DNA from: Candidatus Adlerbacteria bacterium
GTDB taxonomy: Bacteria; Patescibacteriota; Minisyncoccia; Phycocordibacterales; SBAW01
Direction: 5' to 3'
Length of the DNA: 64,000 nucleotides
Assembly (NCBI GenBank): GCA_029288895.1
Contig: JARIGK010000002.1
Coordinates: forward strand, 29,545-93,544
Shown piece by piece: positions 10,146 through 44,823 of this stretch. How positions within the stretch are numbered: the stretch's first letter is position 1; each line of letters starts with the position of its first letter. The translations under genes were made by a program, and so were the position numbers. The notes under the pieces are model-generated. The model was given only the letters and a program-made list of their open reading frames with translations. It was not told the origin of the DNA and searched no databases.

Positions 10146-10176
10146 ACTTCTATATAGTTAGCTCGTAAACTTGCTG

Positions 10177-10656: not shown

Positions 10657-10662
10657 TGCACC

Positions 10663-10701
10663 ATTCTACCGAAAAAAAGCTAGCAGTCAAATTCTGCTAG
10701 C
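10663..10701 (-). promoter_or_regulatory. Candidate leaderless grpE promoter (TTGACT-16-TAGAAT, with the -10 6 nt from the ATG). It overlaps an 8-bp inverted repeat GCTAGCAG-N7-CTGCTAGC, which is also the terminator of the upstream DUF1993 gene.
   Basis: Seen on the minus strand. The inverted repeat is followed by T7 (terminator). The -35 lies inside the repeat and TAGAAT is at 10663-10668. The half-sites weakly resemble CIRCE (TTAGCACTC). Confidence 0.4.
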
Positions 10702-10726
10702 CTTTTCCCTCCAACGCTTCCTGCTC

Positions 10727-11230
10727 CTAGAGGTCCTGCAATGGGAGGCCGTTGATGTAGTCGGCTTTGCCGATTTGGACGCCATTTTTGCGGACTATTG
10801 CGTACGCAGTTGCGACATGGAAGAAGAAGTTCGGGATTGCATACTCGCGAGCGTAGTCAAAGCCTGTCATAAACTTGCCTGGGAAGTATTTTATTTCCAC
10901 GCGAGTATCAGCAGCATTTTTGAATGACTCTTTTGAGATTGTTTGCAGATACGCAATTGTTCTATCGATGCGGGCATCGAGCTCTGCAAAGGTAGTCTCG
11001 GTGTCTTCGTAGCTCGGGGTCTCTGTGCCAGAAAGGCGTGAAGCCAAACCTTTGGCATTGTCTGTCGCAACTTGCACCTGCTTTACCAGTGGGAACATGT
11101 CGGGCGCCAAACGGTCGTTTAACAATGTTGTCTCATCTAGCCCGTGCTCTTTGGCCTTCTGTAACACACCCTTCAAACCGCCAAGCATTTTAATAAAAAC
11201 TGGGATCGTAAATTCGTAGATTGATTCCAT
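10727..11230 (-). CDS. DUF1993-family protein (uncharacterised).
   Basis: 167 aa, beginning MESIYEFTIPVFIKMLGGL... with LAPDMFPLVKQVQ. This matches my memory of the DUF1993 consensus. Confidence 0.5.
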   Translation of the reverse strand: MESIYEFTIPVFIKMLGGLKGVLQKAKEHGLDETTLLNDRLAPDMFPLVKQVQVATDNAKGLASRLSGTETPSYEDTETTFAELDARIDRTIAYLQTISKESFKNAADTRVEIKYFPGKFMTGFDYAREYAIPNFFFHVATAYAIVRKNGVQIGKADYINGLPLQDL

Positions 11231-11293
11231 AGGTCGTTCAGTATAGCAGAATTCTTCAGCAAACCTTAAGTTAGAAGAGAGTATGGTCGAGAG

Positions 11294-12451: not shown

Positions 12452-12570
12452 TGGTTGCCCGCGTATGGTGGCATTACACGAGGCCCTAAAACAGTTTTTG
12501 GACCCGTTGCAATCTGTAGAACTTATGAGCCCTTTAGTCAGAGCTTCGCTCCAAGCTCGTCCACATACAT

Positions 12571-13698
12571 ATGACCAAACCCATATCGCTGTCGATTTTC
12601 TTCCCCACCTACAATGAGGAAGACAACATTCGCGAAACTGTGCTGCGCACCATTGATGTAGTTGAAGGCTCACCCTACGTTGATGAGTACGAAATTCTCG
12701 TCGTAAACGACGGCAGTAAAGACAAAACTCTCGAGATCGCGCGCGAACTTGAGCGTGACTACCCCGGCGTGCGCGTGGTAAACCACGAACAAAACAAAGG
12801 CTATGGCGCTGCGCTTAAAAGCGGCATGGCTGCAGCAACGAAAGACTACGTCTTTTTTACCGATGCCGACTTACAGTTCGATATTAAAGAATTGCAAAAC
12901 TTGCTGGTGCACTTGGACACGCACCCTGTTGTCATTGGCTATCGCGCGCCCCGCCGCGACAGTGCGATGCGCCTTTTTAATGCGTGGGGGTGGAACAAGC
13001 TCAACCGTTTATTGTTTGGCCTGCGTATCCGCGATATCGACTGCGCATTTAAACTCTTCCGTCGCAGCGAACTGCAGAAAATAAAATTGAAATCAAAAGG
13101 CGCAATGATCAGTGCCGAAACATTGATCCGCCTCACACGCCGCAATGTGGCCGTCAAAGAGGTACCGGTCTCTCACTTGCCGCGTACCGCGGGCTCGCCC
13201 ACGGGCGCCAAGCCGTCGGTTATTTTGCGCGCGTTCCAGGAAATGATTGAACTCTATCGTGGCGAATTAGGTGGTGCAACACAAAAAGAAGCGTTGCGTT
13301 TTATGTCGGTCGGCGTCATCAACACACTGCTTGATGCTGCGATCTACATCATGCTCACGCGTGGTATGGAATTCTTCGCTGTGCACCTGACGGTCGCAAA
13401 GTTTGTCTCATTCTTGGGCGGCACGCTCTCAAGTTTGCTCTTAAACCGCAGTTGGACCTTTGGTATCCGTACGCCTCTTACAACCGGCGAAGTTGTGCGT
13501 TTCTACACGACGACCTCGGCTGCAATTGTCGTCAACGTACTCGTGATGAATGCACTCGTTGGTGCGGGTATGTACGACTTGCTGGCGCTTGCAGTCACTA
13601 CCGTCTTTACTTTCGCGGTTAACTTCACCCTCTCGAAATTCTGGGTCTTCCGCCAAAAGGATGCCCCATCTGCTCAACAAAAAGGCTATGCGATTTAA
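12571..13698 (+). CDS. GT2 glycosyltransferase (polyprenyl-phosphate sugar synthase-like, DPM1/GtrB-type) fused to a C-terminal GtrA-like 4-TM domain.
   Basis: IFFPTYNEEDNI and VVNDGSKDKT GT2-A motifs. The C-terminal 120 aa carry GtrA-like TM helices (MSVGVINTLLDAAIYIML..., KFWVFRQ). Confidence 0.8.
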   Translation: MTKPISLSIFFPTYNEEDNIRETVLRTIDVVEGSPYVDEYEILVVNDGSKDKTLEIARELERDYPGVRVVNHEQNKGYGAALKSGMAAATKDYVFFTDADLQFDIKELQNLLVHLDTHPVVIGYRAPRRDSAMRLFNAWGWNKLNRLLFGLRIRDIDCAFKLFRRSELQKIKLKSKGAMISAETLIRLTRRNVAVKEVPVSHLPRTAGSPTGAKPSVILRAFQEMIELYRGELGGATQKEALRFMSVGVINTLLDAAIYIMLTRGMEFFAVHLTVAKFVSFLGGTLSSLLLNRSWTFGIRTPLTTGEVVRFYTTTSAAIVVNVLVMNALVGAGMYDLLALAVTTVFTFAVNFTLSKFWVFRQKDAPSAQQKGYAI

Positions 13699-14179
13699 CT
13701 CACTTCTTACATCACCCATATTCCACGCCGTAGCGAAAAAGCCCGCTAAGACTGAAAAGCAACACGCTACTTCTACAACTCCAGCGCCTGTACAAGCAAC
13801 GCCTGTGGTTGTAGCGACCAGCACACATCCCGTGCCACCTCCGGCGGCTCATACAGCAACGACGAGTGCGGCGACATCGTCTGCTCCTGTCGCGGCAACA
13901 ACTGTGGGGGGCAAACAATCATCAGCGCAAACACGAACACTCTCTACCAGCGTTGGCGTAGTTTCGGCGCCAGAACATAGCACACTCCTTAACCCCTATG
14001 CGGGCGCAGGCGGCCTTACGCCTGTGGGTACGGCAAGCCTCGTGCTTGGTGCCGCGGTGATGGCAAGCCTCGGCCTCCTCTTTGTGCGCGGAGAAACGCT
14101 CGGAAACTCGTACGAGCGCCTGGTGCGATTTATTGGGGTCAAGGCCCCGCCCCGTGCTGTGCGTTCACGTCACGCATAA
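13688..14179 (+). CDS. Ala/Thr/Pro-rich low-complexity protein with a C-terminal hydrophobic anchor (hypothetical).
   Basis: Same frame as ORF-track 13550..14179, with the probable start at the ATG overlapping the GT2 stop. The sequence reads ATSTTPAPVQATPVVVATSTHPVPPPAAHTATTSAATSSAPVAATT... followed by LVLGAAVMASLGLLFV. Confidence 0.4.
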   Translation: MRFNSLLTSPIFHAVAKKPAKTEKQHATSTTPAPVQATPVVVATSTHPVPPPAAHTATTSAATSSAPVAATTVGGKQSSAQTRTLSTSVGVVSAPEHSTLLNPYAGAGGLTPVGTASLVLGAAVMASLGLLFVRGETLGNSYERLVRFIGVKAPPRAVRSRHA

Positions 14180-14191
14180 ACAAACACATAT

Positions 14192-15409
14192 ATGGTGTCG
14201 CGATTGCTGGGCTACATATTGCTCCTGTGTGCAGCTGTGCTCATAGGCGTGGCAATTTATCGCAACTCGACCAAGAGCGAAGTGCCGCTTACCTTTGCGC
14301 CCAACCAAGTGCTTGACGCAACGTGGGTTGCGTACAAAAAAACTTTCATCGAGGCAGGAACCTTCCGCACCTTAGATAAACAGCGCGGCGACATTACCAC
14401 ATCGGAAGGCCAGAGCTACACGATGCTGCGCGCAGTGTGGATGGGCGATAAAGATACCTTCGATGGTGCATGGAAGTGGACCGGGAGCTATCTCCATCGA
14501 AATGATGATCATTTGTTTTCGTGGCTGTGGGGCCAGCGCCCGGGTGGTGCATACGGCGTGATCACAGAACAGAGCGGTCAAAACACCGCGTCGGATGCCG
14601 ATGAAAATATTGCGCTTGCACTTATCTTCGCCTACGCACGCTGGCAAGACCCCGCATATCTGGCGAGTGCGCGCGACATAGTGGGCGACATCTGGGATAA
14701 GGAGGTGATCGTCATTGGCGGCGTCCCCTACCTCACCGCAGACAACTTAGAAAAAACATCCGCGAGCCAAACTGCAGTGCTCAACCCGTCCTACATGGAG
14801 CCTGCGGCGTACAAAATCTTTGCCGCTATCGACCCGACGCATCCGTGGAACAAACTCGCCGACAGTTCGTACATCGTTCTGCAAAAAAGCATGAACGCAG
14901 AACTGGGGAGCGGTGCATCTGCTGGCCTTCCGCCCAACTGGGTTGGGATCGACAAAACATCAGGGAGCCTTGTGCCGCTGCCTGGCACAAACGACACCAA
15001 CTATAGCTACGACGCGATGCGCGTGCCATGGAATATCGCGCTCGACTGGCAATGGTTTGGCGACAAACGTGCACAGACCCTCCTTTCGAAGATGTCGTTC
15101 TTGGGGGCGCAGTGGGACAAGAACCACGCACTTGCAAGCGTCTACAACCACGCAGGCGGTACGGTCACTCCGGAAGAATCGCCGGCCATCTACGGAGGCG
15201 ACCTCGGCTACTTCCTTGTTGCGCAACCGGTAAAGGCAAAAGACGTGTACGAACAAAAGCTCCTCTTCCTCTACAACCCTGGCCTTAACGACTGGAAGCA
15301 ACAACTTTCCTACTACGACGCAAATTGGGTGTGGTTTGGCATCGGGCTCTACAACAATTTGCTCCCCAACTTAGCAAACGACGTACCAAAGACCGCGATT
15401 ACTCATTAA
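14192..15409 (+). CDS. Glycoside hydrolase family 8 endo-beta-1,4-glucanase (BcsZ/CelA-like) with an N-terminal signal anchor.
   Basis: TTSEGQSYTM (the GH8 catalytic-acid region SEGQ.Y), ASDADENIALALIF and an aromatic-rich C-terminus. The size is 405 aa. Confidence 0.8.
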   Translation: MVSRLLGYILLLCAAVLIGVAIYRNSTKSEVPLTFAPNQVLDATWVAYKKTFIEAGTFRTLDKQRGDITTSEGQSYTMLRAVWMGDKDTFDGAWKWTGSYLHRNDDHLFSWLWGQRPGGAYGVITEQSGQNTASDADENIALALIFAYARWQDPAYLASARDIVGDIWDKEVIVIGGVPYLTADNLEKTSASQTAVLNPSYMEPAAYKIFAAIDPTHPWNKLADSSYIVLQKSMNAELGSGASAGLPPNWVGIDKTSGSLVPLPGTNDTNYSYDAMRVPWNIALDWQWFGDKRAQTLLSKMSFLGAQWDKNHALASVYNHAGGTVTPEESPAIYGGDLGYFLVAQPVKAKDVYEQKLLFLYNPGLNDWKQQLSYYDANWVWFGIGLYNNLLPNLANDVPKTAITH

Positions 15410-32628: not shown

Positions 32629-33075
32629 TCAAGCGTGGTGGTATTTGCCACCGTCCAATATTGAAGTGGCGCGGTAGAGTTGCTCGGTGATGATGAGGCG
32701 CGCGAGCATGTGCGGAAAGACGAGCGATGAAAGTTTAAGTGTGAGGTCGGCGCGAGCTTTCACCTCATCTGCAGCGCCAAATGCTCCGCCGATTATGATG
32801 GCAAGCCTCTTGGTAGACTGCTGTTCAAGCTTTGAAATTAATTTTGCCAAGCCAGGGCTGTCTATGTCATTCCCCCGCTCATCAAGGAGGACGACGAAAT
32901 CATCGTCTTTAAGAGCTTTCAAAATCGCTTTTGCCTCAGTTTCTTTGTCGGACGGTTTTGGCAGCAACCACTCTATAGGCAAACGCTTTGAAAGGCGTTT
33001 TTCATACTCACCAATCGCATCTTTGAGTGATGCGTCGTGATTCTTGCCCGGTGAGATAATTAAAACTTTCATCAT
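32629..33075 (-). CDS. rlmH: 23S rRNA (pseudouridine1915-N3)-methyltransferase RlmH (SPOUT).
   Basis: 148 aa. Motifs LAIIIGGAFG and LSSLVFPHMLARLIITEQLYRA are typical of RlmH. Confidence 0.85.
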   Translation of the reverse strand: MMKVLIISPGKNHDASLKDAIGEYEKRLSKRLPIEWLLPKPSDKETEAKAILKALKDDDFVVLLDERGNDIDSPGLAKLISKLEQQSTKRLAIIIGGAFGAADEVKARADLTLKLSSLVFPHMLARLIITEQLYRATSILDGGKYHHA

Positions 33076-33383
33076 CTGCGGGTCTTTTTTACTGCATTCT
33101 CAGCGCGAATGGCGCCCTCTTCTTCCAAGAGTTTTAATTTGCGCGCAGCACCGCCACGGTTGTAGTCGCCCATTTTACCGTCCGAGCGGATAACACGGTG
33201 ACACGGCACCGTAGGATCGTAGTTCATCGACATGATATAGCCCACAGCGCGCGCGGCGCCTGACTTTCCAGCCTTTTTGGCAACCTCGCCGTAGGTCATG
33301 GTTTTACCTTTTGCGATCTTACGCACCACTGCACGCACATCGTTTGCAAATTTAGAAGAGGGTGGAGTTTTCAGTGTTCTCAT
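33072..33383 (-). CDS. Methylated-DNA-protein-cysteine methyltransferase C-terminal (DNA-binding/active-site) domain only.
   Basis: TYGEVAKKAG...AARAVGYIMSMN...PCHRVI shows the active-site PCHR motif. It is 103 aa with no N-terminal MGMT domain. Confidence 0.8.
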   Translation of the reverse strand: MRTLKTPPSSKFANDVRAVVRKIAKGKTMTYGEVAKKAGKSGAARAVGYIMSMNYDPTVPCHRVIRSDGKMGDYNRGGAARKLKLLEEEGAIRAENAVKKTRR

Positions 33384-34221
33384 ACGAGTCAGCTATCTTT
33401 TTGCTTTTAATGGCTGGGGCTTGTGGGATGGTTGGTGCGGCAGAGGCAGCGGATGGTTTGGGCATATATGGCTGCAGCGCCTGGCCTACCGCTTCTCTAT
33501 AGGTGCAGTAGTCGCAGTCTGCGCCTGGCTTTGGAAGCGCATCGCTGTCGAGGCATGCTTTCAAATCAATAAGCGTGCCTTCGATCCAGTCGGTATTACC
33601 TTTGTACGGCACGAGTGTGAGTTCGAAATCAAGTTGGCCGTCGAACGCCTCGCGGTCTTTGGTGGCATTCGCATAAAACCAATATCCCATATCAGATACT
33701 TTGAAGCCGTTTTTGCGAAGAAGCCACTGATACACTTCCAACTGGCGTTTATAGCCGCGATGCCATTCTTCGTCCAATGATTCGATGCGAGCATCTTTGC
33801 TGGTTGCTTTGTAGTCGATCACGATAAGCTCACCATCGCTGTTGACCCAAATATCGTCGACACCGCCGCGCACCGTGAGCCCCGTCTCTGGGTGCACGTA
33901 CTTAACACCTTGGCTGAGTGCGTTGCGCCATTCATCCATCTTTTCGTGATTGAACGGAATAGCATCCAAGCCGTACTCTTTCGCGAGCGGGTGCTGCGTC
34001 CCTTGTGCGCGGTGTGTATCGAGTTCTTTTTTGAGCAATGCGTCGACCGCGGAGTTTAAGTTAAATGGGAAGCCCGGCGGACGCGCCGTACCCAATTTAT
34101 TGTCGATGTAAAAACATCGAGCACACTCCATGAAGAGGTCGATTTTGGAGCGGGACAGCGTCCATTTGGGGCCGCCGTAGTTATAGTCGGGCCTGCGATG
34201 TGGTTTGTAGTAGGAGCTCAT
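33352..34221 (-). CDS. PD-(D/E)xK nuclease-superfamily protein, Cas4/RecB-like, with Fe-S-type cysteines.
   Basis: Motifs GGVDDIWV...LIVIDYKATS (D..D-x-K) and QLEVYQWLL (QxxxY). An N-terminal C-A-R-C and a C-terminal C...C-D-Y-C give a 4-Cys pattern like the Cas4/AddB iron-sulfur module. It is standalone, with no cas genes nearby. Confidence 0.6.
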   Translation of the reverse strand: MSSYYKPHRRPDYNYGGPKWTLSRSKIDLFMECARCFYIDNKLGTARPPGFPFNLNSAVDALLKKELDTHRAQGTQHPLAKEYGLDAIPFNHEKMDEWRNALSQGVKYVHPETGLTVRGGVDDIWVNSDGELIVIDYKATSKDARIESLDEEWHRGYKRQLEVYQWLLRKNGFKVSDMGYWFYANATKDREAFDGQLDFELTLVPYKGNTDWIEGTLIDLKACLDSDALPKPGADCDYCTYREAVGQALQPYMPKPSAASAAPTIPQAPAIKSKKIADSYENTENSTLF

Positions 34222-34245: not shown

Positions 34246-34695
34246 TTACTTAGGCTCTACGCCCCAACGTGCGCGAACTTTACGTTCCAAACGCGAGAAG
34301 AGCGTAAATATCAGGAGAGAAATCACAGCAGTAGCGACAGCTAAAATATAGAAACCAAAGCCGCATGCCATACCAACAGCCGAGACAACCCAAATACCCG
34401 ACGCGGTAGTCAGTTCAAGATGGTCGCCGCGATAGATAGCCAAACCGCTGCCGATAAAGCCGATCCCAACAACAATAGAACCAGCAATTTGGAGTGGGTT
34501 TACGCCAGAGAAGATCGAGAGGCTATATGCCGCGAGTGTGCCCACGAGTACAAACAACGCCGAACCAAGCGACACCATCGCGTACGTGCGCATGCCTGCG
34601 TGTTTACCGGCGACAGAACGCTCGAGCCCCATGGCCATACCAAGGATGGCTGCGACAACCAAACGGACAGCGAACGTCATTTCAATACCTGTCAT
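34246..34695 (-). CDS. mgtC: MgtC/SapB family membrane protein.
   Basis: 149 aa. AAILGMAMGLER and 4 TM helices are typical of the MgtC N-terminal domain. Confidence 0.8.
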   Translation of the reverse strand: MTGIEMTFAVRLVVAAILGMAMGLERSVAGKHAGMRTYAMVSLGSALFVLVGTLAAYSLSIFSGVNPLQIAGSIVVGIGFIGSGLAIYRGDHLELTTASGIWVVSAVGMACGFGFYILAVATAVISLLIFTLFSRLERKVRARWGVEPK

Positions 34696-34720: not shown

Positions 34721-35356
34721 TTACTTCGTCTCGAACTTCACCCACAACGGATTGCCGTTTGCATCACGAACAGCAGGGTCATTTGCCATTGAGAATTTGT
34801 GATCGCCGTCATCGCGCGCTTCGCCGACAAAATATGTCTGGCCTGGCAATGTGCCACGCAGAAGGTCGACTGCGCCGCTTGTGCGGCCGGACGTAAAGAG
34901 TGCTGCGCCCAAGACATTCCCTGGCTGGCCATTGTAATTTTCGTAGACAACAATCCAGGTTGGTACAGAGACGCGCACGTTTGCAACTGTGATTTCAAGC
35001 CCTGCGTCTTGCGGCGATGGAATAGTGACGCTGCCATCCTGAAGCGAGGATCCTGTTGTAGTGCCCGCTGCGTTTCCGCTATTGTTCCACGCTGCGGCGG
35101 TCTTTTCAGTTTCCGGAGCTTTACTCTTGCTTGCAAAGGTTGCCCAGCCGATTCCCACAACTGCAAGGAGCGCAACAATGATACCTACGTTACGAAATGT
35201 GTTGCTTTTCTGTACAGGAGCCTGCGATTTTTTTGTTGAGCTTGGAGTAAAACCTGGTTTATTCTGCGGTTCTGTTTTCTGAGTTGAGGTTGTCAGCGGT
35301 TGCGACCATGACAACTGTGCCTTCTTTTCGCCCCCGTTCTGATTATTCGCATCCAT
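34721..35356 (-). CDS. Hypothetical membrane-anchored extracytoplasmic protein (211 aa).
   Basis: N-terminal low-complexity region, one TM (VGIIVALLAVVGIGWA) and a C-terminal beta-rich domain. Confidence 0.45.
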   Translation of the reverse strand: MDANNQNGGEKKAQLSWSQPLTTSTQKTEPQNKPGFTPSSTKKSQAPVQKSNTFRNVGIIVALLAVVGIGWATFASKSKAPETEKTAAAWNNSGNAAGTTTGSSLQDGSVTIPSPQDAGLEITVANVRVSVPTWIVVYENYNGQPGNVLGAALFTSGRTSGAVDLLRGTLPGQTYFVGEARDDGDHKFSMANDPAVRDANGNPLWVKFETK

Positions 35357-35390: not shown

Positions 35391-36236
35391 CTACGGCTTA
35401 ATCATACTCAGGGGGGTTCTCGCACACAAGGCAGCGGCTTCGTGGAGGACATCTTCAACACGCTTCCCCGCAATACCAACCCCTTCAAGGATGTCAGGGT
35501 GGCCCAAAAGGTCGCGGCAGAGCACTAATTTTTGGCTTAGAAGGGCGATTTTTTCGTGTTTGGTGAGTGTTGTGAGCGCCGTTGTCGGGTACATCCTGTG
35601 GGTTTCAATCCTGGAGTGCAAATTGCTTTTGTTCGGGTAGTCCCAGCCCAAAAGTTCGAGACCTTGGCATGACGCATACTCGATAGCCCTGCCGGTAAAT
35701 TTAGTGTTAGTGACGATAAGGCCCGCTACTGTTTCGTGCGGCTTTGCGTTCCGTATATCATCGATGCGGGCTTTGACATAGAGCGCAACTTTCAAATCGC
35801 TTTTGAGCGCCGCAGTATTGTGGAATTTTGCCTCAACGAAATAGTTGATGCCGTCCTTCTCCATAACCACGTCAACTTCGTGTTCGACGCAGCCGCCTTG
35901 CACTATTTGGTCGGTTTTGACGTGCTCATACCCTTCTGCACGGAACAGCTCGCCTAGAAATGTTTCAAACGGGAAGCCTGTGGGGCCAAATTCAAGCAGA
36001 GCGCGCTTCAATGAGTAATGTGCAGCGGCTTCGCGTCGATGTTCGCGGAGCAATGCAAACGCGTGATGATAAATTTTTTCGGTTGGAATGCCGTCGTAAA
36101 GCTCACTCTGAACCTTTTCAACAATGTGGACGGTTGCTTCTTCGTCGGCGCCTGCTTTATGGAGTGATGTGCGGAGCTTCAGTGGGTCAAATGGTTCTGT
36201 CGTACCGTCGGCCTTCGCAACAAGTATTGTTGGCAT
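35391..36236 (-). CDS. ATP-cone domain fused to a restriction-endonuclease-like (PD-(D/E)xK, Mrr-like) domain.
   Basis: N-terminal MPTILVAKADGTTEPFDPLKLRTSLHKAG... is an ATP-cone. The following region GYEHVKTDQIVQGGCVEHEVDVVMEKDGINYFVEAKFH has an E..D..E.K nuclease core. The start at the internal Met abuts the upstream stop codon. Confidence 0.6.
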   Translation of the reverse strand: MPTILVAKADGTTEPFDPLKLRTSLHKAGADEEATVHIVEKVQSELYDGIPTEKIYHHAFALLREHRREAAAHYSLKRALLEFGPTGFPFETFLGELFRAEGYEHVKTDQIVQGGCVEHEVDVVMEKDGINYFVEAKFHNTAALKSDLKVALYVKARIDDIRNAKPHETVAGLIVTNTKFTGRAIEYASCQGLELLGWDYPNKSNLHSRIETHRMYPTTALTTLTKHEKIALLSQKLVLCRDLLGHPDILEGVGIAGKRVEDVLHEAAALCARTPLSMIKP

Positions 36237-36237
36237 A

Positions 36238-36678
36238 CTACTTTTTCTCGACAACGGCGTAGTGGACGGCCTGGCCGTTGAGCATGACGGTATCGAGAAC
36301 TGGCGCCCCAGTGCCAGAACCTTTAAATGACACTTCGAACATACTTTGCGATGTTGTTGCCGTGTTTTCGCACGCGCCCGATGACGTCTCAAGCATTAAC
36401 GTGACATGGACGGGGTTTTCTCCTGTTGTTGTAATACCGCTTGAGCGGACGCCGCACGCAGTGTTGGAAGCGAGTGCGCCTTCGTATGTATGTACGCCTT
36501 GAGAGAGTGAGTGTTGGAGAGTTATTGGAAGTGTAAAGGTTGTCTTGTTTGAAGGTGCGGTATTTTGCGCCGCATCTGTGTGAGGCACAGGCGACGTGTG
36601 CATGTTTTGCAAGAGCCACCACCCACCCACAAGCAGCATGATAAGTACAAGGAGGAGCAGGATCCCGTGGCGCTTCAT
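36238..36678 (-). CDS. Hypothetical secreted/membrane-anchored protein (146 aa).
   Basis: N-terminal signal anchor (MKRHGILLLLVLIMLLVGGWWLL); no family recognised. Confidence 0.45.
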   Translation of the reverse strand: MKRHGILLLLVLIMLLVGGWWLLQNMHTSPVPHTDAAQNTAPSNKTTFTLPITLQHSLSQGVHTYEGALASNTACGVRSSGITTTGENPVHVTLMLETSSGACENTATTSQSMFEVSFKGSGTGAPVLDTVMLNGQAVHYAVVEKK

Positions 36679-36701: not shown

Positions 36702-37811
36702 TTATGTAAACGATGACTTGTCAACAATCCCGCCGCCCAAGCATTGGGCAGCTTCGGTATAGAGCACAAGCGACTGCCCAAGTGGCACATAATGAGGCAT
36801 TTTGAGCACCACTTCTGCCCCATCTTTCAAAACCTCTGCGGGTATCAGTGTCTGGTGGTAGCGATACCGGGCCATGCAAGTTGCTGGCAATTCGCCGGTC
36901 CAGTTTGTCTCTACAAGAGATAGTCTGGTGAGAGAAGCCTTCTTAGGGAAACGCTCAGTCGAAACAGTGATCGTGTTTTTTTCAATATCTTTGCCAATAA
37001 CGAAGTGGGGTTTTGTTTCTGGATTTTGCGCAAACAATACAAAACCATGGCGCTGACCCATGGTGTACAACAAAGCGCCGTCGTGTACGCCAACGATATT
37101 CCCCTCCTCATCAACTACATTGCCGGGTTCTGGCTTTAGTTCTTTATGCAGCATGTCATCGAGCGATATATCGCCTAAAAAGCACAACCCTTGGCTGTCG
37201 CGGCGGCGTGAGTTTGGCAGCTCAAATTTCTCAGCCAATGTTCGCACCTCTGTTTTGTGCATATGGCCAATTGGAAAGATAGTCTTTTTCAAGATCTCTT
37301 TTTTAACCATCCACAAAAAGTAGCTTTGATCTTTTGATGCATCGGGTGCGGCAAACAACTCACCATCTTTTACTTGCGCGTAATGGCCGGTTGCAACAAA
37401 GTCGGCACCTTTTTGCAGCGCAAACTCAAAGAATGCACCAAACTTTATTTCGCGGTTGCAGAGCGTGTCGGGGTTAGGAGTTCTCCCCTTTGTAAATTCA
37501 CTAAGTGACTCTTTAAACACACCCTCTTCGTAATTCTTCGACAAATCGAGTTCCAAAAACGGGATTTCTAAATGCGCCGCAACACGCATGGCGTCGAGCT
37601 TATCTACCCCAGCCGAGCATGGGTACCCAGGCAGTGCAATGCGTATAAACACACCCGTAACGTCGTAGCCCTGCTTCTTCAAGAGTGCAGCCGACACAGC
37701 CGAATCGACCCCTCCCGAGAGGCCAACAAAGACTTTTGTATTCTTTTTATTTCCAAACCCAAACATAAATCGAGAGTACCACACCGTTTCAGCAAAAGAA
37801 AAAGATGGCAT
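36702..37811 (-). CDS. mnmA: tRNA-specific 2-thiouridylase MnmA.
   Basis: PP-loop VGLSGGVDS, catalytic Cys motifs, 369 aa. Confidence 0.9.
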   Translation of the reverse strand: MPSFSFAETVWYSRFMFGFGNKKNTKVFVGLSGGVDSAVSAALLKKQGYDVTGVFIRIALPGYPCSAGVDKLDAMRVAAHLEIPFLELDLSKNYEEGVFKESLSEFTKGRTPNPDTLCNREIKFGAFFEFALQKGADFVATGHYAQVKDGELFAAPDASKDQSYFLWMVKKEILKKTIFPIGHMHKTEVRTLAEKFELPNSRRRDSQGLCFLGDISLDDMLHKELKPEPGNVVDEEGNIVGVHDGALLYTMGQRHGFVLFAQNPETKPHFVIGKDIEKNTITVSTERFPKKASLTRLSLVETNWTGELPATCMARYRYHQTLIPAEVLKDGAEVVLKMPHYVPLGQSLVLYTEAAQCLGGGIVDKSSFT

Positions 37812-39066: not shown

Positions 39067-40434
39067 CTACTGAGGCAAGGTCGGCAAATTGGTAGGCGCC
39101 TCTGATGTGCGCGACGGCACGCGGTTCAAACCTGGGGTCTTTACGCTCGAGTATGGGAAGTGCCACAGCGTCGCAACCTCTTCTGGGCTCATGATCGATG
39201 GCACTTGGTCGTATGGCACGCCAAAGTATGCGCGGTATTTGTAGTGGAAGAAGAGCAAACGTTTAACGATACGTTCTCGTATACCCATGAAGTCTTCCCA
39301 TGGATAGTCGAATTGCACCATGCCGCGCATAGGCTTACCGCCAAGGCCATTGCCTCGAGATTTAAACACTTGGAATATACGGAAGAGGTATGCGCCCCAA
39401 ATGCCATGAAACTTTTCTTTCTTGGCGATATACAGGATACGTATACCAATTTCAAATGGGTTTTTCGAAAGAGAATTCTCAATTCCTTTTACAATTTCGC
39501 GTTCGCCGTCGGTGAGCGACATCGTTGGCGAACCGCCGTTCGTACCCTCTTCTTTCAGCGCCCCCTGTATACCTTTGCTACGCTTCGCCGCATCAGACAT
39601 TATTTTTTCTATTTGGGCTTTCCCTGCGTCTCTATACCGACTAGTTTTCTCAGGGAAACCATACCATTCAAATTGATTGTGTGGTTTGAGCATCAGCTGG
39701 TACCACAAATACTGGTCTTTACCGACATTATTCATCAACTCAAAAATGTTGGTGAGTGGGTCAGTTTTTGTTTCCGGCACATCAGGGTTTTTGTCGAGTT
39801 CAAAGTCAACATAGGTTCGAATAGGCACGGGGCTAAGCGGGTCACTTTTCATGTACTCAGCACCCCAAATTTCGTACTCGTCCATATTAAAATTTATTTT
39901 AGGCACATAGTCTTCCGCAGCCGTAACTTTTGCTTCTGGGAATTGGCCGTAAATACGCGCCTCAATAGCTGGATGCCACACTTTCAGTGCGTGGATATAG
40001 AAACTAATTTGACCTTCGTTTGAGGCAATTTCAAGCGTCCACACTGCTTTGTAGCCGCCGCGCAGGATACGATCGAGGAATGTTGTTTCGCTGCCCGTCG
40101 TCCAAATAGAGTTAAGGAAAATTTCCATCGCAGCCGGTGATTTGGTTACCTCGGCAGGAAGCTGCACCTCAAGAAGCCCGCGTTCGCGCGAGAACCAAAA
40201 CTTGTAGCGCGCGTAGTGGATCCACGTAATGTAGAGGATCGTAAAAAGGAAAACCGGCAGCCACAGAGGAGAAAAAGCGACCGTCATCGCGAGTGTCGAC
40301 GTAACGGTGTCGGGGTCAACAATAGAGGCAAAAATAACTATCAGAAGGAGCGCCAACGACATAAATATCGGAGGGCTTAATTTCCAATCGGTAAGCCAGT
40401 TACGAACCTCGTGCGCCTCGTGGTATAGAAGCAT
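39067..40434 (-). CDS. Hypothetical polytopic membrane protein (about 455 aa) with a large soluble domain.
   Basis: The start is taken at MLLYHEAHEV..., because the further upstream extension overlaps the divergent gene. TM helices are followed by a hydrophilic domain with no known motifs. Confidence 0.45.
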   Translation of the reverse strand: MLLYHEAHEVRNWLTDWKLSPPIFMSLALLLIVIFASIVDPDTVTSTLAMTVAFSPLWLPVFLFTILYITWIHYARYKFWFSRERGLLEVQLPAEVTKSPAAMEIFLNSIWTTGSETTFLDRILRGGYKAVWTLEIASNEGQISFYIHALKVWHPAIEARIYGQFPEAKVTAAEDYVPKINFNMDEYEIWGAEYMKSDPLSPVPIRTYVDFELDKNPDVPETKTDPLTNIFELMNNVGKDQYLWYQLMLKPHNQFEWYGFPEKTSRYRDAGKAQIEKIMSDAAKRSKGIQGALKEEGTNGGSPTMSLTDGEREIVKGIENSLSKNPFEIGIRILYIAKKEKFHGIWGAYLFRIFQVFKSRGNGLGGKPMRGMVQFDYPWEDFMGIRERIVKRLLFFHYKYRAYFGVPYDQVPSIMSPEEVATLWHFPYSSVKTPGLNRVPSRTSEAPTNLPTLPQ

Positions 40435-40460
40435 GTGGTATAGTATACCGCACGTAACGT

Positions 40461-40856
40461 ATGTACCCCGTGTACTCCACCGACTCCTTATTGTCGTTTT
40501 GGCAATCAATGCTTGCCGCTCCGCTGCATTATGTGGAGATGGTGTTTGCCTTTTTGGCGACACTCGCCTTCCTTCTATATCTGCGCGGATTCCTTGGTAG
40601 CATAGGCAATATTTTCAAGCTGAATGCCCATGAAGAACATTTAGAGCACGCGCAGGTTCGCGCAGTGCACGGCATACTATTTCTTTTGATGCTTTTTGCA
40701 GTATGGGAGATGGTCCGCACCATCGCTATTTGGGTGGGGCTTTTAACCGGCAGCCCCGTACTCGGCCTTTATATTTTCTGCCTTATTCTGCTTGTTTACG
40801 CGTACAGGTTTGTTGCAAAAAATCTCTTCTCCGGTGGTGGCGGAGGCGGCCACTAA
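40461..40856 (+). CDS. Small hypothetical membrane protein (131 aa) with a C-terminal GGGGGGH tail.
   Basis: 3-4 TM helices and a perfect terminator immediately downstream. It is divergent from the 39067..40434 gene. Confidence 0.4.
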   Translation: MYPVYSTDSLLSFWQSMLAAPLHYVEMVFAFLATLAFLLYLRGFLGSIGNIFKLNAHEEHLEHAQVRAVHGILFLLMLFAVWEMVRTIAIWVGLLTGSPVLGLYIFCLILLVYAYRFVAKNLFSGGGGGGH

Positions 40857-40889: not shown

Positions 40890-41945
40890 TTATTTTACGA
40901 GCGAGAAGCGATTGTCTTTGCCGCGTTTGAAGTATTTCTGGTTCTGGAGGTTTACCACAATGGTGCCTGGTTTGACGTGGCGCTCCTTCATCACCTTCTC
41001 GACGATTTCGTCTTTGGTAAGCGGACCGTTGTCGCGGAGCACTTCGCGGATCACATCGCGCACGACACCCGAGGTGTAGCCCCACTCCTTAAGCGCGTAC
41101 ATACCGCGGCCAACGAGCACGAAGCGGTCGTCTTTGATGAGTTCGTTGTGGGTCGTTGCCACATGCGCTGCGCGGTCGAACATTTTTTCAATAAGTTCTG
41201 CAACTTCGCGGAAGTGCAACGGCGAGCCGTGCTTTTTGACAGCCAAGTATGCGTAGTCACGGACACCCTTTGTCTTAACATTCGGCGATGCCGACGGGCC
41301 CCACTCGCCAAGCGGGTTTTTACCGATATTCTTCGAGATCGCCAACCAGCGTCTCAGAATTTCTTCGTTGCGGTGTTTGTCGTTGATGTTCTGGAGTTCC
41401 TTCAAGAAGCGGTCGATCATCTCGCCTTCCGGGATAAGGTCTTCGTCTGAGAGCCCAGAATAGAGGTTCGAAAGTGCAGACTCAACCTGCTTTGCCAAGT
41501 CTGGGTCAACGTACCAGCAGCGGTTTACTTCGTCATCTTCCTTGCGGAATTTGAATGGGTCGCCAAGTACTAAAAGGAAGTAGATGTGGTTCTGCATCGC
41601 CTTGTCTTTGGTGATGAAGTTCAAAAGGTCGTCTTCGCAGACGATGCCACCCAAGCTGTCGATGATGCGTTCGAGTTCGTTAAATGCCGCGTGTGCGTCC
41701 GCAAATGCAGGCGACTTCTTCAACGCTGCAAGTGCATGATTTTCGATCTGGCGAACGCGTTCGCGGGTAATAGAGTAGCGCTGGCCGATAGCTTCCAAGG
41801 TAACGCGCTCAGGATTTTGGCCCAAACCAAAGCGTTGTTCCAAGACAATGCGAGAACGCTCCGGGAGCGAGGAGAGAAGGCGCTTTACGATCGCCTTTGG
41901 CTTAAAACCTGTTTTGTCTGCTGTTTTCTCGTTTACTGTGGCCAT
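40890..41945 (-). CDS. Sigma-70 region-4-like HTH protein with a C-terminal HARE-HTH-like domain; it is not a complete sigma factor.
   Basis: Residues about 25-80, LPERSRIVLEQRFGL...TLEAIGQRYSITRERVRQIENHALAALK, form a sigma70 region 4.2. The C-terminal HFREVAELIEKMF...DDRFVLVGRGMYALKEWGY matches the HARE-HTH pattern (D.RF..VGRG.Y.L..W). No region 2 or 3 is present. Confidence 0.55.
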   Translation of the reverse strand: MATVNEKTADKTGFKPKAIVKRLLSSLPERSRIVLEQRFGLGQNPERVTLEAIGQRYSITRERVRQIENHALAALKKSPAFADAHAAFNELERIIDSLGGIVCEDDLLNFITKDKAMQNHIYFLLVLGDPFKFRKEDDEVNRCWYVDPDLAKQVESALSNLYSGLSDEDLIPEGEMIDRFLKELQNINDKHRNEEILRRWLAISKNIGKNPLGEWGPSASPNVKTKGVRDYAYLAVKKHGSPLHFREVAELIEKMFDRAAHVATTHNELIKDDRFVLVGRGMYALKEWGYTSGVVRDVIREVLRDNGPLTKDEIVEKVMKERHVKPGTIVVNLQNQKYFKRGKDNRFSLVK

Positions 41946-41997: not shown

Positions 41998-44823
41998 CTA
42001 GACAACGACAAAATTGATGATTTTACCGGGCACATAAATAGCCTTTTGCTCCTTCCCTTCTGCCAAATACTTAGCAACTGCCTCTACAGCACGGGCTGCC
42101 GTTAACGCTTCATCTTCTGTTGCACCCTTGCCAAGCTCTATCGAACCGCGGACTTTACCATTGATCTGTATTGCCACTGTAACGGTGTCGGCGACGAGCT
42201 TCGACTCATCGTACGAAGGCCAGGTAGATGCGTGAATAGAGTCCGTGTGGCCGAGCTTCTCCCATAACTCGTCTGTGATGTGTGGCGCAAACGGTGCCAA
42301 CACTTGCAAAAACATCTCGAGCTGATTCTTGCCAATGCCGCCTTCTTTTTCTGCAGCGTTGAGGAAAATCATCATCTGGCTCACGGCCGTGTTGAATTTG
42401 AATGCTTCAATATCTTCAGTGACTTTTTTGATGGTCTGGTGGAGCACGACATCAAGTGCCGGGATATCATTACCTACCTTTTCTGCCAAGCGCCAGACGC
42501 GTTCCATAAAACGGGCAGTGCCAGCGATAGAAGCGGTGCTCCATGCAACGGTATTTTCGAACGGACCCATAAACATTTCGTAGGTACGGAAGGCGTCTGC
42601 GCCGTAGTTGTTCACTACATCTGTTGGGTTTATGACATTGCCGTAGCGTTTGCTCATCTTGCGGCCGTCTTCTGCCAAGATAAAGCCCAAGAATTCGAGG
42701 CGTGCGAATGGTTCGATGGTAGAAACAGCGCCAATGTCGTACAAGAATTTGTGCCAGAAGCGCGCATAGATTAAGTGGCGTACGGCGTGGTCGCCGCCGA
42801 CGTAAACGTCAACAGGCGCCCAGTACTTTTCTTTCTCTTTCGATACAAGCGCTGCGTTGTTGTCCGGATCCATAAAGCGGAGGTAGTACCACGAAGAACC
42901 TGCCCATTGCGGCATGGTGTTTGTTTCGCGTTTTGCTGGACCGCCACAGGTTGGGCACGTTGTGTTTACCCAGTCGGTAATATTTGCCAACGGCGACTCG
43001 CCCGTGCCCGACGGCTCGTATGACTCAACGTCCGGCAACAGCACAGGTAACTGATCTTCTGGCACCGCAACTGCGCCATCCTTTTCGCAATGAATAATCG
43101 GAATGGGTTCGCCCCAATATCGCTGGCGGCTAAACACCCAGTCTTTAATTTTGTATGTGGTGGTCAACTTCCCCCCAACCTTTTCTGTGATTGCTTTACG
43201 TGCTTCTTCCGACGTCATCCCATCAAACTCCCCGGAATTAACAAGCACGCCATCATCCGCAAATAGCTTTTGGTTCAAATACTGTTCGAATATATGTCTA
43301 TGGTGTGGCCAGGTGATAGTTTCAAGTACTTTATCTTTAGGAACTTTTACAAGTTCATGTTTTCCATCTTCGACTTCTGAATGGACACGAGTATCTGAAT
43401 TTAAAATAACCTCGTAGGCGTATCCAACAGAGCGTTGATTCCTATTTTTTGTGTGTCGATATGCCCACACCGTAGAATTTGGGAGAATTTTCCTCCCAAT
43501 TGTGAAATCGGTAAAGCCTGTTTCTTCCGTAATCTCGCGTGCGAGCGTTTGCTCATCAGTCTCGCCCTCCTCAACGCCACCGCCTGCAAAATGGACATGT
43601 TCCGGACCTTCTTTTACGAGATAAAAGTTATTATCTTTATCCCTCAAAATTGGGTCTACTACTTTGCGATGTACTGTCTCTACACCAGGACGCTCAGCAC
43701 TAATACCATTGAGTTCGAATTTCTCTGATATAACATCGCGGATTTCAATGTTGTATTTCTTGGCAAAGGCACCATCACGTTCGTCGTGGGCAGGGACAGC
43801 CATGATGGCCCCGGTGCCATAGCCGCTCAAGACATAGTCGGCAACGAACATTGGGATTTCTTCGCCGTTTGCCGGATTGATTGCTTTAATGCCCTTTAAT
43901 TCAACACCGGTTTTTTCTTTATCGGCATTCGTGCGCTCTATCTCAGTCTTTGCTGCAGCTGCGGCAACATACTTCTCTACCTCATCTTTATTTTCTATCT
44001 GCGCCGACAACTCTTTTACAAGTTCGTGTTCTGGCGCCAACACCAAAAACGTTGCACCAAACAACGTATCTGCGCGCGTGGTAAATACTCTGACTGTTTT
44101 ATCAGTACCTATGAGTTTGAAATCAATTTCTGAGCCTTCCGAGCGGCCAATCCAGTTGCGCTGGGCAGTTTTAATGTGTTCTGGCCAGCGTAATGTGTCC
44201 AAATCAGTAAGCATGCGGTCGGCATATGCGGTAATTTTGAGCACCCACTGTGGAAGTGCGCGCTTTTCTACAACGCTGCCGCAGCGCTCACACACATTGC
44301 CGTCCAAGTCTTCGTTGGCCAACCCTGTCATGCACGACGGGCACCAGTTAATCGGTTCGTTGCTCTGGTACGCCAACCCTTTCTTAAAAAGCTGCAAGAA
44401 AATCCACTGCGTCCATTTGTAGTACGCAGGGTCGGTGGTATTTATCTCACGCGACCAGTCGTAGTTAAACCCAATGACAGAAAGCTGCTCTTTAAACGTC
44501 GCAATGTTTTTTTCGACTGCAACACGCGGATGTACTTTGTTTTTAAGCGCGAAGTTTTCGGCAGGCAACCCAAACGCATCCCACCCCATTGGGTGCAACA
44601 CGTTGTGGCCCTGCATGCGCTTGGTGCGCGAGTAGATATCAGTGGCAATGTAGCCTTTCGGATGGCCAACATGGAGCCCTTCACCAGACGGGTACGGGAA
44701 CATGTCGAGCACGTAGCTCTTAGGCTTCCCTGAATCTTCCGTAGTTTTATACAAACCAGAATCCGCCCAGCGTTTCTGCCACTTTGCTTCTATCTCTTTG
44801 TGGTCGTATCTCTCCCCTGACAT
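41998..44823 (-). CDS. leuS: Leucyl-tRNA synthetase with an inserted NUDIX-hydrolase-like domain.
   Basis: HVGHPKGY (HIGH), KMSKRYGN (KMSKS) and a CP1 editing domain. A Nudix box GGGVEEGETDEQTLAREITEETGF (Gx5Ex7REx2EExG) lies in an insertion of about 140 aa between the VPAHDERD and LVNSGEF landmarks. Confidence 0.92.
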   Translation of the reverse strand: MSGERYDHKEIEAKWQKRWADSGLYKTTEDSGKPKSYVLDMFPYPSGEGLHVGHPKGYIATDIYSRTKRMQGHNVLHPMGWDAFGLPAENFALKNKVHPRVAVEKNIATFKEQLSVIGFNYDWSREINTTDPAYYKWTQWIFLQLFKKGLAYQSNEPINWCPSCMTGLANEDLDGNVCERCGSVVEKRALPQWVLKITAYADRMLTDLDTLRWPEHIKTAQRNWIGRSEGSEIDFKLIGTDKTVRVFTTRADTLFGATFLVLAPEHELVKELSAQIENKDEVEKYVAAAAAKTEIERTNADKEKTGVELKGIKAINPANGEEIPMFVADYVLSGYGTGAIMAVPAHDERDGAFAKKYNIEIRDVISEKFELNGISAERPGVETVHRKVVDPILRDKDNNFYLVKEGPEHVHFAGGGVEEGETDEQTLAREITEETGFTDFTIGRKILPNSTVWAYRHTKNRNQRSVGYAYEVILNSDTRVHSEVEDGKHELVKVPKDKVLETITWPHHRHIFEQYLNQKLFADDGVLVNSGEFDGMTSEEARKAITEKVGGKLTTTYKIKDWVFSRQRYWGEPIPIIHCEKDGAVAVPEDQLPVLLPDVESYEPSGTGESPLANITDWVNTTCPTCGGPAKRETNTMPQWAGSSWYYLRFMDPDNNAALVSKEKEKYWAPVDVYVGGDHAVRHLIYARFWHKFLYDIGAVSTIEPFARLEFLGFILAEDGRKMSKRYGNVINPTDVVNNYGADAFRTYEMFMGPFENTVAWSTASIAGTARFMERVWRLAEKVGNDIPALDVVLHQTIKKVTEDIEAFKFNTAVSQMMIFLNAAEKEGGIGKNQLEMFLQVLAPFAPHITDELWEKLGHTDSIHASTWPSYDESKLVADTVTVAIQINGKVRGSIELGKGATEDEALTAARAVEAVAKYLAEGKEQKAIYVPGKIINFVVV

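Follow-up and report, generated by a model that had tools for sequence, protein, structure and literature searches.

An ATP-cone joined to an AF1548/Mrr-type nuclease in Patescibacteria, Archaea and Bacteroidota: a candidate adenine-nucleotide-gated enzyme

The window, the 64-kb stretch of DNA analysed here, carries a complete gene whose product combines an ATP-cone, an AF1548-type PD-(D/E)xK nuclease and a helix-hairpin-helix (HhH) domain (Table 1). Its reading frame runs on the minus strand from an ATG at 36236-36234 to a stop codon at 35391-35393, and the translation begins MPTILVAKADGTTEPFDPLKLRTSLHKAG. A public protein collection holds an identical protein (P0001), and no NCBIfam model matched it. 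A longer, TTG-started reading frame (to 36392) was rejected as the true start: it overlaps the upstream gene, and the homologues all start at the ATG position. Translational coupling to the preceding gene is likely, because the stop of that gene ends 1 nt before the ATG. No strong terminator-like site was found from mnmA to the end of the block.

Table 1. Features of the focal gene and its neighbours (positions in the window; aa, residues of the focal protein unless a protein length is given)
Feature	Position	Strand	Basis or occurrence
Focal gene, complete, 281 aa + stop: ATP-cone / AF1548-type PD-(D/E)xK nuclease / HhH domain	35391..36236	-	ORF and translation
ATP-cone domain, aa 5-78, beta-hairpin lid and helices	36003..36224	-	Pfam PF03477
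Cone-to-nuclease linker, aa 74-91, YSLKRAxxEFGPxGFPFE	35964..36017	-	Conservation
PD-(D/E)xK nuclease core, aa 87-199	35640..35978	-	Pfam Mrr_cat
Catalytic codons E91; D122; E135; K137	35964-35966; 35871-35873; 35832-35834; 35826-35828	-	
AF1548-like_C domain, helical, Rad51-N-like helix-hairpin-helix fold, aa 203-272	35421..35630	-	Pfam PF22357 just below cut-off; fold match
mnmA, tRNA 2-thiouridylase	36702..37811	-	Pfam
146-aa predicted membrane/secreted protein, no family match, upstream of focal gene	36238..36678	-	
211-aa single-pass membrane protein, weak DUF7282 match, directly downstream	34721..35356	-	In 28/54 loci
MgtC-family membrane protein	34246..34695	-	Pfam MgtC, E=4e-29
Cas4/AddB-like PDDEXK_1 nuclease, N- and C-terminal cysteine motifs	33352..34221	-	Pfam PDDEXK_1, E=1e-15
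103-aa MGMT C-terminal-domain-only protein, intact PCHR active site	33072..33383	-	Pfam DNA_binding_1, E=2e-27

An earlier sequence-only reading of this gene had proposed an N-terminal ATP-cone, and Pfam bears this out (PF03477, 39.9 bits against a cut-off of 25.8, E=6.3e-10); the domain has the beta-hairpin lid over a helical bundle that characterises the fold. Conserved cone residues include K8, G11, E14, F16, K20, T52 and Y74, with K8, G11 and K20 invariant in 27 diverse family members, and the adenine-pocket residues V6/K8/E14/P15/F16/K20/L21 correspond at equal spacing to V51/K53/E59/P60/F61/K65/L66 of Escherichia coli NrdR. The canonical V-x-K-R-D-G cone motif is present in archaeal members and reads KADG here. 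In Bacteroidota members the lid glutamate E14 is usually replaced by V or A, and members of the family may accordingly differ in their sensing of adenine nucleotides. The best-conserved stretch of the whole protein is the linker leading from the last ATP-cone helix into the first nuclease helix, which bears the catalytic E91. G84, G87, F90 and E91 are 100% invariant in the CPR, archaeal and Bacteroidota sets, and P85, Y74 and K77 are nearly so. We regard this linker as a candidate allosteric coupling element.

The region after the linker had been described as an Mrr-like nuclease with an E..D..E.K arrangement, and here too the profile scores above its curated cut-off (PF04471, aa 87-196, 33.9 bits against 21, E=3.7e-8), the motif being E91, (E120)/D122, E135 and K137. 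The alpha-beta-beta-beta-alpha-beta core fold is present, with support from Pfam, the PDB and structure search, and an NrdR-like zinc ribbon, the competing identity that had been considered for this part of the protein, is absent. Across about 500 homologues from CPR, Archaea and Bacteroidota, the four catalytic residues E91, D122, E135 and K137 are 100% invariant, as are E120, R157, D160 and N177; C116, H119 and C190 are nearly invariant. Both domains of the proposed two-domain architecture were thus correctly named, while a third had been missed: the C-terminal helical domain matches AF1548-like_C (PF22357, aa 216-270) at 20.6 bits, just below the cut-off of 23.9, contains an HhH-like motif (LEGVGIAGKRVEDVL) and probably binds DNA.

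Among solved structures, 1Y88 (AF1548) matches residues 95-269 with E=5e-32, collinearly over the nuclease and the C-terminal helical domain. The catalytic D/E/K residues of AF1548 were predicted in the GOS paper (PMC1821046), and the focal protein has the identical set. A full-length AF1548 orthologue (P0271, 265 aa, 99% identical to the crystallised chain) and orthologues from Ferroglobus and Geoglobus share the ATP-cone, nuclease and C-terminal domain architecture of the focal protein. Since near-identical full-length orthologues bear the ATP-cone, 1Y88 represents a truncated member of the same family; AF1548 has never been functionally characterised, and thus yields a fold rather than a function.

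The family is very large, ancient and catalogued. We recovered 5026 homologues at E<=1e-3. The family comprises 1192 clusters at 50% identity and more than 7,000 at 90%, was found in at least 585 GTDB species, and extends over Patescibacteria, Bacteroidota, a Chlamydiota plasmid, Archaeoglobi and DPANN archaea; a Micrarchaeia member was found among the clusters of 10 distant representatives. As the sequence-only reading had anticipated, the architecture is present in databases with thousands of members and yet uncharacterised: our literature search found no paper on an ATP-cone fused to a nuclease, restriction endonuclease or Mrr, or on such a protein in Patescibacteria or DPANN. The focal protein is an ordinary member (56-82% identity to homologues across many species), and the interest lies in the family rather than in this locus.

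In Patescibacteria, the gene belongs to a block (LeuRS, sigma factor, DUF8128, YceG, MnmA, focal gene) that is kept across Adler-, Nomura-, Taylor-, Kaiser- and Wolfebacteria, and its most conserved neighbour is mnmA, which in 47 of 52 loci lies upstream at a distance of no more than 4 kb. In the lineage of the window, this neighbourhood is generic core synteny. In Paceibacteria the gene is chromosomal, inherited vertically and of a housekeeping kind, as opposed to a mobile one for restriction or defence. On the downstream side, the Cas4-like PDDEXK_1 gene and the gene encoding only the MGMT C-terminal domain lie where the sequence-only reading had placed them, two and three genes away; TIGR00372 (cas4) scores the former at 33 bits, far under its cut-off of 65. 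That reading had seen here a small cluster of DNA-processing oddities. The synteny is real but not obligate, with PDDEXK_1, UDG and MGMT genes within 4 kb downstream in 34, 17 and 11 of 54 loci, respectively, so the linkage that speaks for a DNA-damage role is loose.

The same linkage, probably within one transcription unit, could nonetheless point to a structure- or lesion-specific repair or recombination endonuclease (NucS/EndoMS-, Hjc- or XPF-like), licensed by dNTP/ATP through the ATP-cone and acting with the Cas4-like nuclease, MGMT and UDG. The Rad51-N-like HhH domain is in keeping with this idea, and together with the NucS/restriction-enzyme-like fold it would suit a double-stranded DNA repair nuclease just as well as a role in salvage. 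We nevertheless consider such a function unlikely. In more distant lineages the repair genes drop out while the focal gene holds its place after MnmA, and no repair genes stand beside its homologues in the archaeal and Bacteroidota contexts examined. In addition, the fold likeness is generic to PD-(D/E)xK enzymes, and the N-terminal dimerisation/DNA-binding domain and the PCNA motif of NucS are absent.

A defence role had also been suggested, and Mrr_cat does provide the catalytic domain in Mrr as in many defence nucleases. Gene context and missing domains led us to reject a known defence system as well as a classical restriction-modification or type IV enzyme. A solitary Mrr-like type IV restriction enzyme or abortive-infection effector, triggered by a phage-disturbed ATP/dNTP pool, would still account for the Mrr_cat domain, for structural neighbours such as Can2, Card1, Cdn1, NucC and MspJI, which are defence nucleases activated by a ligand, and for the matches in PADLOC-DB 2.0, which are weak, partial and of a generic-nuclease kind (the Mrr-like part of ZorD, 5e-5; CARF-PDDEXK, 6.5e-4). 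We judge this the least probable of the readings considered. It sits poorly with the fixed place in a conserved core block and the identity retained over many species, with the absence of Mrr_N or another target-recognition domain, and with the lack of a partner gene or of any system-level PADLOC or NCBIfam match. The family is also virtually missing from mobile elements, with a single weak partial match in 50,697 phage records and just 2 full-length matches in 72,556 plasmids, and its non-CPR contexts consist of metabolic and transport genes rather than defence islands. The association with methyltransferases or defence islands that a neighbourhood survey might have revealed was found in none of the contexts examined: the block in the window contains no DNA methyltransferase partner (the one methyltransferase there, RlmH, is a SPOUT enzyme acting on rRNA and is encoded five genes away), none was present in 11 Pfam- or record-annotated contexts, and in Sporocytophaga one Methyltransf_24 gene lies 2 kb from the homologue, unlinked and on the opposite strand.

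Outside the Patescibacteria, the most informative contexts were those of the two plasmid matches. An operon consisting of the focal homologue, a beta-CASP/RMMBL nuclease, an archaeal-type thymidine/AMP phosphorylase and a ribose-phosphate diphosphokinase, in this order, was found on a Pontibacter plasmid, on a Criblamydia plasmid and in Cyclobacterium, where PPK2 comes after it. The pair of focal gene and beta-CASP gene recurs in two more Bacteroidota (L083, L175). On an archaeal contig, ribose-1,5-bisphosphate (R15P) isomerase (TIGR00511, 400 bits against a cut-off of 314) and AMP phosphorylase (TIGR03327, 619 bits against 535) precede the focal homologue, with a 4-nt overlap. In total, about 6 of roughly 25 independent non-CPR contexts showed this association with nucleotide catabolism; AMP phosphorylase, R15P isomerase, Prs and beta-CASP genes were all absent from the window and from 80 CPR loci. 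A triad of MBL, Prs and thymidine phosphorylase genes is induced by microoxia in Bradyrhizobium (PMC6515984), and nucleotide salvage through Form III RuBisCO has been described for DPANN and Patescibacteria (bioRxiv 10.64898/2026.05.13.725050). The presence of the family in CPR, DPANN and Archaeoglobi is a lineage pattern that we count in favour of a role in salvage.

Cation and heavy-metal transporters and other membrane proteins adjoin the focal gene equally often. The gene directly upstream in Archaeoglobi encodes a channel or transporter protein, namely MscS, CorA or an amino-acid permease. Elsewhere the adjoining genes encode CopA-type ATPases, a Na+/H+ exchanger, RND pumps and HMBD proteins, and MgtC is found near the focal gene in 23 of 54 CPR loci (directly adjoining in several distant ones) and in an archaeal locus (L137). 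In archaeal-type loci, multi-TM proteins made up 11 of 30 probable-operon-partner families but 33 of 316 background families (Fisher p=3.7e-4), a difference that depends on a crude TM predictor and crude ORF calls. These observations could be explained if the protein were an adenylate-sensing partner of membrane ion or metal transport, for instance in Mg2+/ATP balance or metal stress, with a nuclease activity that is secondary or metal-responsive. This seems very improbable to us, given that the transporter families are heterogeneous, that metal-resistance islands gather many unrelated genes, and that no mechanism links a cytoplasmic HhH nuclease to transport.

The same operons, with their nucleotide-catabolism genes and ATP-driven pumps, might alternatively be regulated by the protein. 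As an NrdR-like transcription factor, it would sense ATP/dATP through the cone and use the nuclease fold and HhH domain mainly as a DNA-binding unit to repress or activate adjacent genes. NrdR is the sole other known DNA-binding ATP-cone protein and forms nucleotide-dependent oligomers, the gene is often the first of its module in Bacteroidota, and one family member is labelled 'NrdR family' by JGI. Complete conservation of the catalytic residues in two domains of life would be unexpected for a purely DNA-binding relic, however, and the zinc ribbon is lacking; in Patescibacteria, moreover, the genes on either side belong to a housekeeping block and offer no evident target for regulation. We therefore regard regulation of transcription as quite improbable. 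A search of the window with phmmer, using an approximate E. coli NrdR sequence, found no NrdR, and no RNR genes were noted nearby.

From the architecture, the intact catalytic residues and the preserved adenine-binding residues of the cone, a nucleotide-regulated nuclease, as the sequence-only reading had supposed, is the natural interpretation, with gating as its predicted element. Taking the observed architecture, intact motifs, distribution and gene neighbourhoods together, we see about an even chance that the protein is an adenine-nucleotide-gated nuclease acting in nucleic-acid turnover or nucleotide salvage. It would act in the cytoplasm as an AF1548/Mrr-type endonuclease that requires metal, has a PD-(D/E)xK fold and uses E91-D122-E135-K137 for catalysis, and the C-terminal HhH domain would most likely grip nucleic acid without sequence specificity. 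The N-terminal ATP-cone is predicted to bind adenine nucleotides (ATP versus dATP, possibly ADP/AMP), and binding would most likely toggle the enzyme on or off, by analogy with ribonucleotide reductases and NrdR, either through an altered oligomeric state or through a shift of the invariant linker that carries E91. In its most likely role, the enzyme would degrade nucleic acid in a regulated manner, tied to adenylate/dNTP status, and thereby supply nucleotide salvage or AMP catabolism, with a probable exonuclease partner in the Cas4-like PDDEXK_1 protein of Patescibacteria and the beta-CASP nuclease of Bacteroidota. A more specific version is possible, though we hold it tentatively: gated by energy charge (ATP/AMP/dATP), the nuclease may initiate a controlled digestion of rRNA or DNA, whether the cell's own or imported, and, with its beta-CASP or Cas4-like exonuclease partner, pass NMPs to AMP phosphorylase and the pentose-bisphosphate pathway.

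If this energy-charge version were true, nucleic acid would be a regulated reserve of carbon, phosphate and energy in Patescibacteria, DPANN, Archaeoglobi and Bacteroidota, and the family would represent a third kind of ATP-cone output, after ribonucleotide reductase (RNR) and NrdR. To our knowledge, the ATP-cone is understood functionally only in ribonucleotide reductases and their repressor NrdR, where it serves as the allosteric switch. In the present family it is joined to an intact nuclease, a combination found in hundreds of ultra-small patescibacterial species, in DPANN and Archaeoglobi, and broadly among Bacteroidota. If ATP/dATP truly gates the cleavage of DNA or RNA, this would be a new tie between nucleic-acid breakdown and the nucleotide or energy state of the cell, and it would matter most to organisms that are unable to make nucleotides and depend on salvage. 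The family is also tractable, as the protein is small and soluble, 1Y88 covers two of its three domains, and there are members in culturable Bacteroidota and in Archaeoglobus.

Several known systems share parts of this design. Similarity to NucS/EndoMS does not extend beyond the common core, where it covers about 110 residues (22-24% identity), and the N-terminal domain of NucS has no counterpart here. Mrr, a type IV restriction endonuclease, shares the Mrr_cat family, but the focal protein lacks the Mrr_N winged-helix domain, has an ATP-cone and an HhH domain in addition, and its gene belongs to the conserved core genome, with no patchy or mobile distribution; the protein is not Mrr proper. 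Can2, Card1 and Cdn1 follow the same logic, in which a sensor of small adenine nucleotides is joined to a PD-(D/E)xK nuclease, but their sensor is CARF, whereas that of the focal protein is an ATP-cone and not CARF or SAVED, with plain ATP/dATP rather than cyclic oligoadenylates as presumed ligands and no CRISPR or CBASS context. The crystallised AF1548 chain, unlike the focal protein, is without the ATP-cone. NrdR and the activity site of ribonucleotide reductases share the ATP-cone itself by HMM and fold, including the adenine-pocket residues, although E. coli NrdR has KS where the focal protein has KADG and archaeal members have KRDG. NrdR places its cone after an N-terminal four-Cys zinc ribbon, whereas here the cone is N-terminal and followed by the invariant linker. 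The outputs likewise differ, being a zinc ribbon in NrdR, a reductase in RNR, and a nuclease with an HhH domain in this family, for which an ATP/dATP-dependent oligomeric switch would be expected by analogy.

We read the target gene from an ATG, with the stop codon of the upstream gene 1 nt before it; the longest mechanical ORF would start at a TTG at 36392 and overlap that gene, a start with no support from homologues. The sequence-only reading, an ATP-cone fused to an Mrr-like nuclease, was borne out by two Pfam matches above cut-off and by a PDB sequence search, which retrieved 1Y88, the structure of Archaeoglobus fulgidus AF1548 (E = 5e-32, aa 95-269). That reading had missed a third domain at the C-terminus, which is HhH/Rad51-N-like and probably binds DNA. 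An AlphaFold2 model (50 homologues as input, mean pLDDT 91) also matched 1Y88 in Foldseek (E = 3.5e-16), and we regard the three-domain architecture, with intact nuclease and adenine-pocket motifs, as close to certain.

Features of the target and its surroundings (window positions unless stated otherwise)
Feature	Position	Strand	Description
Target gene	35391-36236	-	281 aa, N-terminus MPTILVAKADGTTEPFDPLKLRTSLHKAG
Target, ATP-cone	aa 5-78		Pfam 39.9 bits (cut-off 25.8)
Target, Mrr_cat	aa 87-196		Pfam 33.9 bits (cut-off 21)
Target, AF1548-like_C	aa 216-270		Pfam 20.6 bits, sub-threshold (cut-off 23.9)
MGMT-C protein	33072-33383	-	103 aa; C-terminal DNA-binding/active-site domain of O6-methylguanine methyltransferase alone
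Cas4/AddB-like PDDEXK_1 nuclease	33352-34221	-	289 aa, stand-alone
498-aa protein	39067-40563	-	No Pfam match; weak DUF8128 matches in homologues
Sigma-70 region-4 + HARE-HTH protein	40890-41945	-	351 aa
LeuRS	41998-44823	-	941 aa
LeuRS, NUDIX hydrolase domain	aa 385-514		E = 5e-11
Reductive pyrimidine-catabolism set	10150-14846 of locus L176	opposite	One Bacteroidetes genome

Across about 500 aligned homologues (near relatives within the CPR, representatives at 50% identity, and members from archaea and from Bacteroidota), E91, E120, D122, E135, K137, R157, D160 and N177 were 100% invariant, as were G84, G87 and F90. D122, E135 and K137 are the counterparts of the D/E/K residues that the GOS paper (PMC1821046) predicted to be catalytic in AF1548, and invariance of the E91/D122/E135/K137 tetrad makes it likely that the family is an active nuclease. 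After the lid lysine of the cone the target has Ala where E. coli NrdR has Ser, so lacking the Arg of the 'KR' motif is not disqualifying; archaeal members carry KRDG. Most Bacteroidota members have Val or Ala in place of the lid Glu, and their ligand preference may therefore differ. Conservation peaked in YSLKRAxxEFGPxGFPFE, which links the last cone helix to the E91-bearing helix and is a likely candidate for the cone-nuclease coupling element. Adenine nucleotides binding the cone would gate the nuclease via oligomerisation or the linker; by analogy with RNR and NrdR, and given the invariant linker, we lean towards such gating, probably by oligomerisation. Further Foldseek matches comprised NucS/EndoMS, Can2, MspJI, Cdn1 and NrdR, and that the target is itself an NrdR-like regulator appears improbable.

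The fusion had been described as present in databases yet uncharacterised, and our searches agree: we found 5026 relatives (E <= 1e-3, among 90%-identity clusters) and no paper describing or testing it, although databases list the family under 'ATP cone domain-containing protein' or 'restriction endonuclease'. The best 120 relatives share the target's architecture (~275 aa, 56-100% identity), and those with a named source come from Patescibacteria, Adlerbacteria or Paceibacterota. Among 1.84 billion 50%-identity representatives there were 1192 matches (431 at E <= 1e-30), nearly all full length in the best 150, and a Bacteroidota query added >7500 clusters from Pontibacter, Sporocytophaga, Flavobacterium, Cyclobacterium and Saprospiraceae. 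Of the GTDB species representatives, at least 585 have a member, mainly Paceibacteria-type Patescibacteria, with some Bacteroidota and one Kapaibacterium; the target is an ordinary member at a locus with no unusual feature of its own. The N-terminal cone shared by all close orthologues is absent from the crystallised 'hypothetical protein AF1548'. A search with its chain retrieved a cone-bearing 265-aa orthologue of 99% identity, and the cone also occurs in Ferroglobus, Geoglobus, Nano-, Aenigm-, Woese- and Pacearchaeota, Altiarchaeota and Bathyarchaeia, so 1Y88 is a truncated member of the three-domain family and provides a crystal structure for two of those domains; either the original gene model has its start placed too late or the crystallised construct had been shortened.

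In the window, the target lies in a co-directional block (LeuRS, sigma70-r4/HARE-HTH, DUF8128, YceG, MnmA, a small protein, the target, a 211-aa membrane protein, MgtC, PDDEXK_1, MGMT-C, RlmH) with no strong terminator-like site from mnmA to its end, and this order recurs in Adlerbacteria and related genomes. Clustered ORFs within 4 kb on each side of 80 GTDB loci showed MnmA (47/52) and YceG (41/52) upstream, and PDDEXK_1 (34/54), the 211-aa protein (28/54), MgtC (23/54), UDG (17/54) and MGMT (11/54) downstream. These recurrent neighbours place the target in the conserved core genome, not among defence genes. The proposed cluster of DNA-processing genes is real synteny, but it fades with growing phylogenetic distance; a repair or recombination nuclease is an unlikely, though the strongest, rival identity. 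The suggested defence role fared worse: neither a DNA methyltransferase nor a matching defence-system model was found in the target context, 50,697 phage records gave one weak partial match, and 72,556 plasmids no more than two of full length. We therefore rejected defence or restriction as the leading explanation, and defence or type IV restriction is very improbable.

Among other members of the block, the NUDIX domain of LeuRS is inserted within the editing-domain region, as in two related Patescibacteria (L001, L004), with a HAD domain there in a third locus (L006). The 498-aa and 351-aa proteins are uncharacterised and strictly syntenic with the block across Paceibacteria. The MGMT-C protein keeps its PCHR motif, lacks the N-terminal MGMT domain and overlaps at its start the end of the upstream Cas4-like gene by 32 nt; the latter encodes an N-terminal CxxC and a C-terminal C...CxxC, with no CRISPR-Cas genes nearby.

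Transporter genes are repeatedly co-oriented with family members, often overlapping them. In three Archaeoglobi loci (L087, L088, L089) the immediate upstream gene, which overlaps or almost overlaps the target homologue, encodes a different transporter each time (MscS, CorA, an amino-acid permease with a Usp domain). Other loci (L162, L127, L173, L176, L058) carry flanking HMA-type P-type ATPases on either side, a Na+/H+ exchanger or Cus-type RND pumps including CusB; HMBD proteins and a MacB-type ABC system also occur next to family members. Multi-TM families made up 11/30 probable operon partners vs 33/316 in the background of archaeal-type loci (Fisher p = 3.7e-4, with crude TM prediction and ORF calls), and MgtC recurs in L137, an archaeal metagenome contig. 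This second pattern is unexplained, and we consider a transport-linked function a low-probability rival.

Outside Patescibacteria, AMP-phosphorylase-pathway and beta-CASP genes recurrently adjoin the family. The two plasmid matches, in Criblamydia sequanensis (Chlamydiota, L170) and Pontibacter actiniarum (Bacteroidota, L171), share one operon: target homologue, beta-CASP/RMMBL metallo-beta-lactamase nuclease, archaeal-type thymidine/AMP phosphorylase (589-602 bits with TIGR02645, which clears the cut-off, and 480-506 bits with TIGR03327 AMP_phos, slightly short of the 535 required) and ribose-phosphate diphosphokinase. In Cyclobacterium (L174) all four genes are present, with PPK2 and a P-type ATPase after them, and two further Bacteroidota (L083, L175) keep the target and beta-CASP order. 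In L137, ribose-1,5-bisphosphate isomerase (TIGR00511 400 bits, cut-off 314) and AMP phosphorylase (TIGR03327 619 bits, cut-off 535) precede the target with a 4-nt overlap. The conserved beta-CASP, phosphorylase and Prs (PRK07199 subfamily) module of L170, L174 and L171 spans several phyla, lies near PPK2, phosphoketolase, acetate kinase, glycogen phosphorylase and P-type ATPases, and resembles an as yet uncharacterised island for low-energy or hypoxic conditions; microoxia induces its Bradyrhizobium counterpart, an MBL-Prs-thymidine-phosphorylase triad (PMC6515984). The L176 set (PreA/PreT-like genes, CN_hydrolase, a dihydropyrimidinase-like gene), beside the target homologue and a metal-efflux cluster, could be coincidence.

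As these links span three phyla and both domains, we prefer a role in the regulated breakdown of nucleic acids that supplies nucleotide salvage or catabolism. The target endonuclease would be paired with an exonuclease, Cas4-like in Patescibacteria and beta-CASP in Bacteroidota, plausibly a common theme across lineages. Nucleic-acid turnover or salvage as the physiological role is tentative, resting on ~6 of ~25 independent non-CPR contexts, and the composite of an adenine-nucleotide-gated nuclease acting there stands at about an even chance. This testable lead may be moderately surprising to the ATP-cone, nucleotide-metabolism and ultra-small-prokaryote fields. The AMP-recycling pathway described for archaea, DPANN and Patescibacteria includes AMP phosphorylase and R15P isomerase and ends in Form III RuBisCO (bioRxiv 10.64898/2026.05.13.725050).
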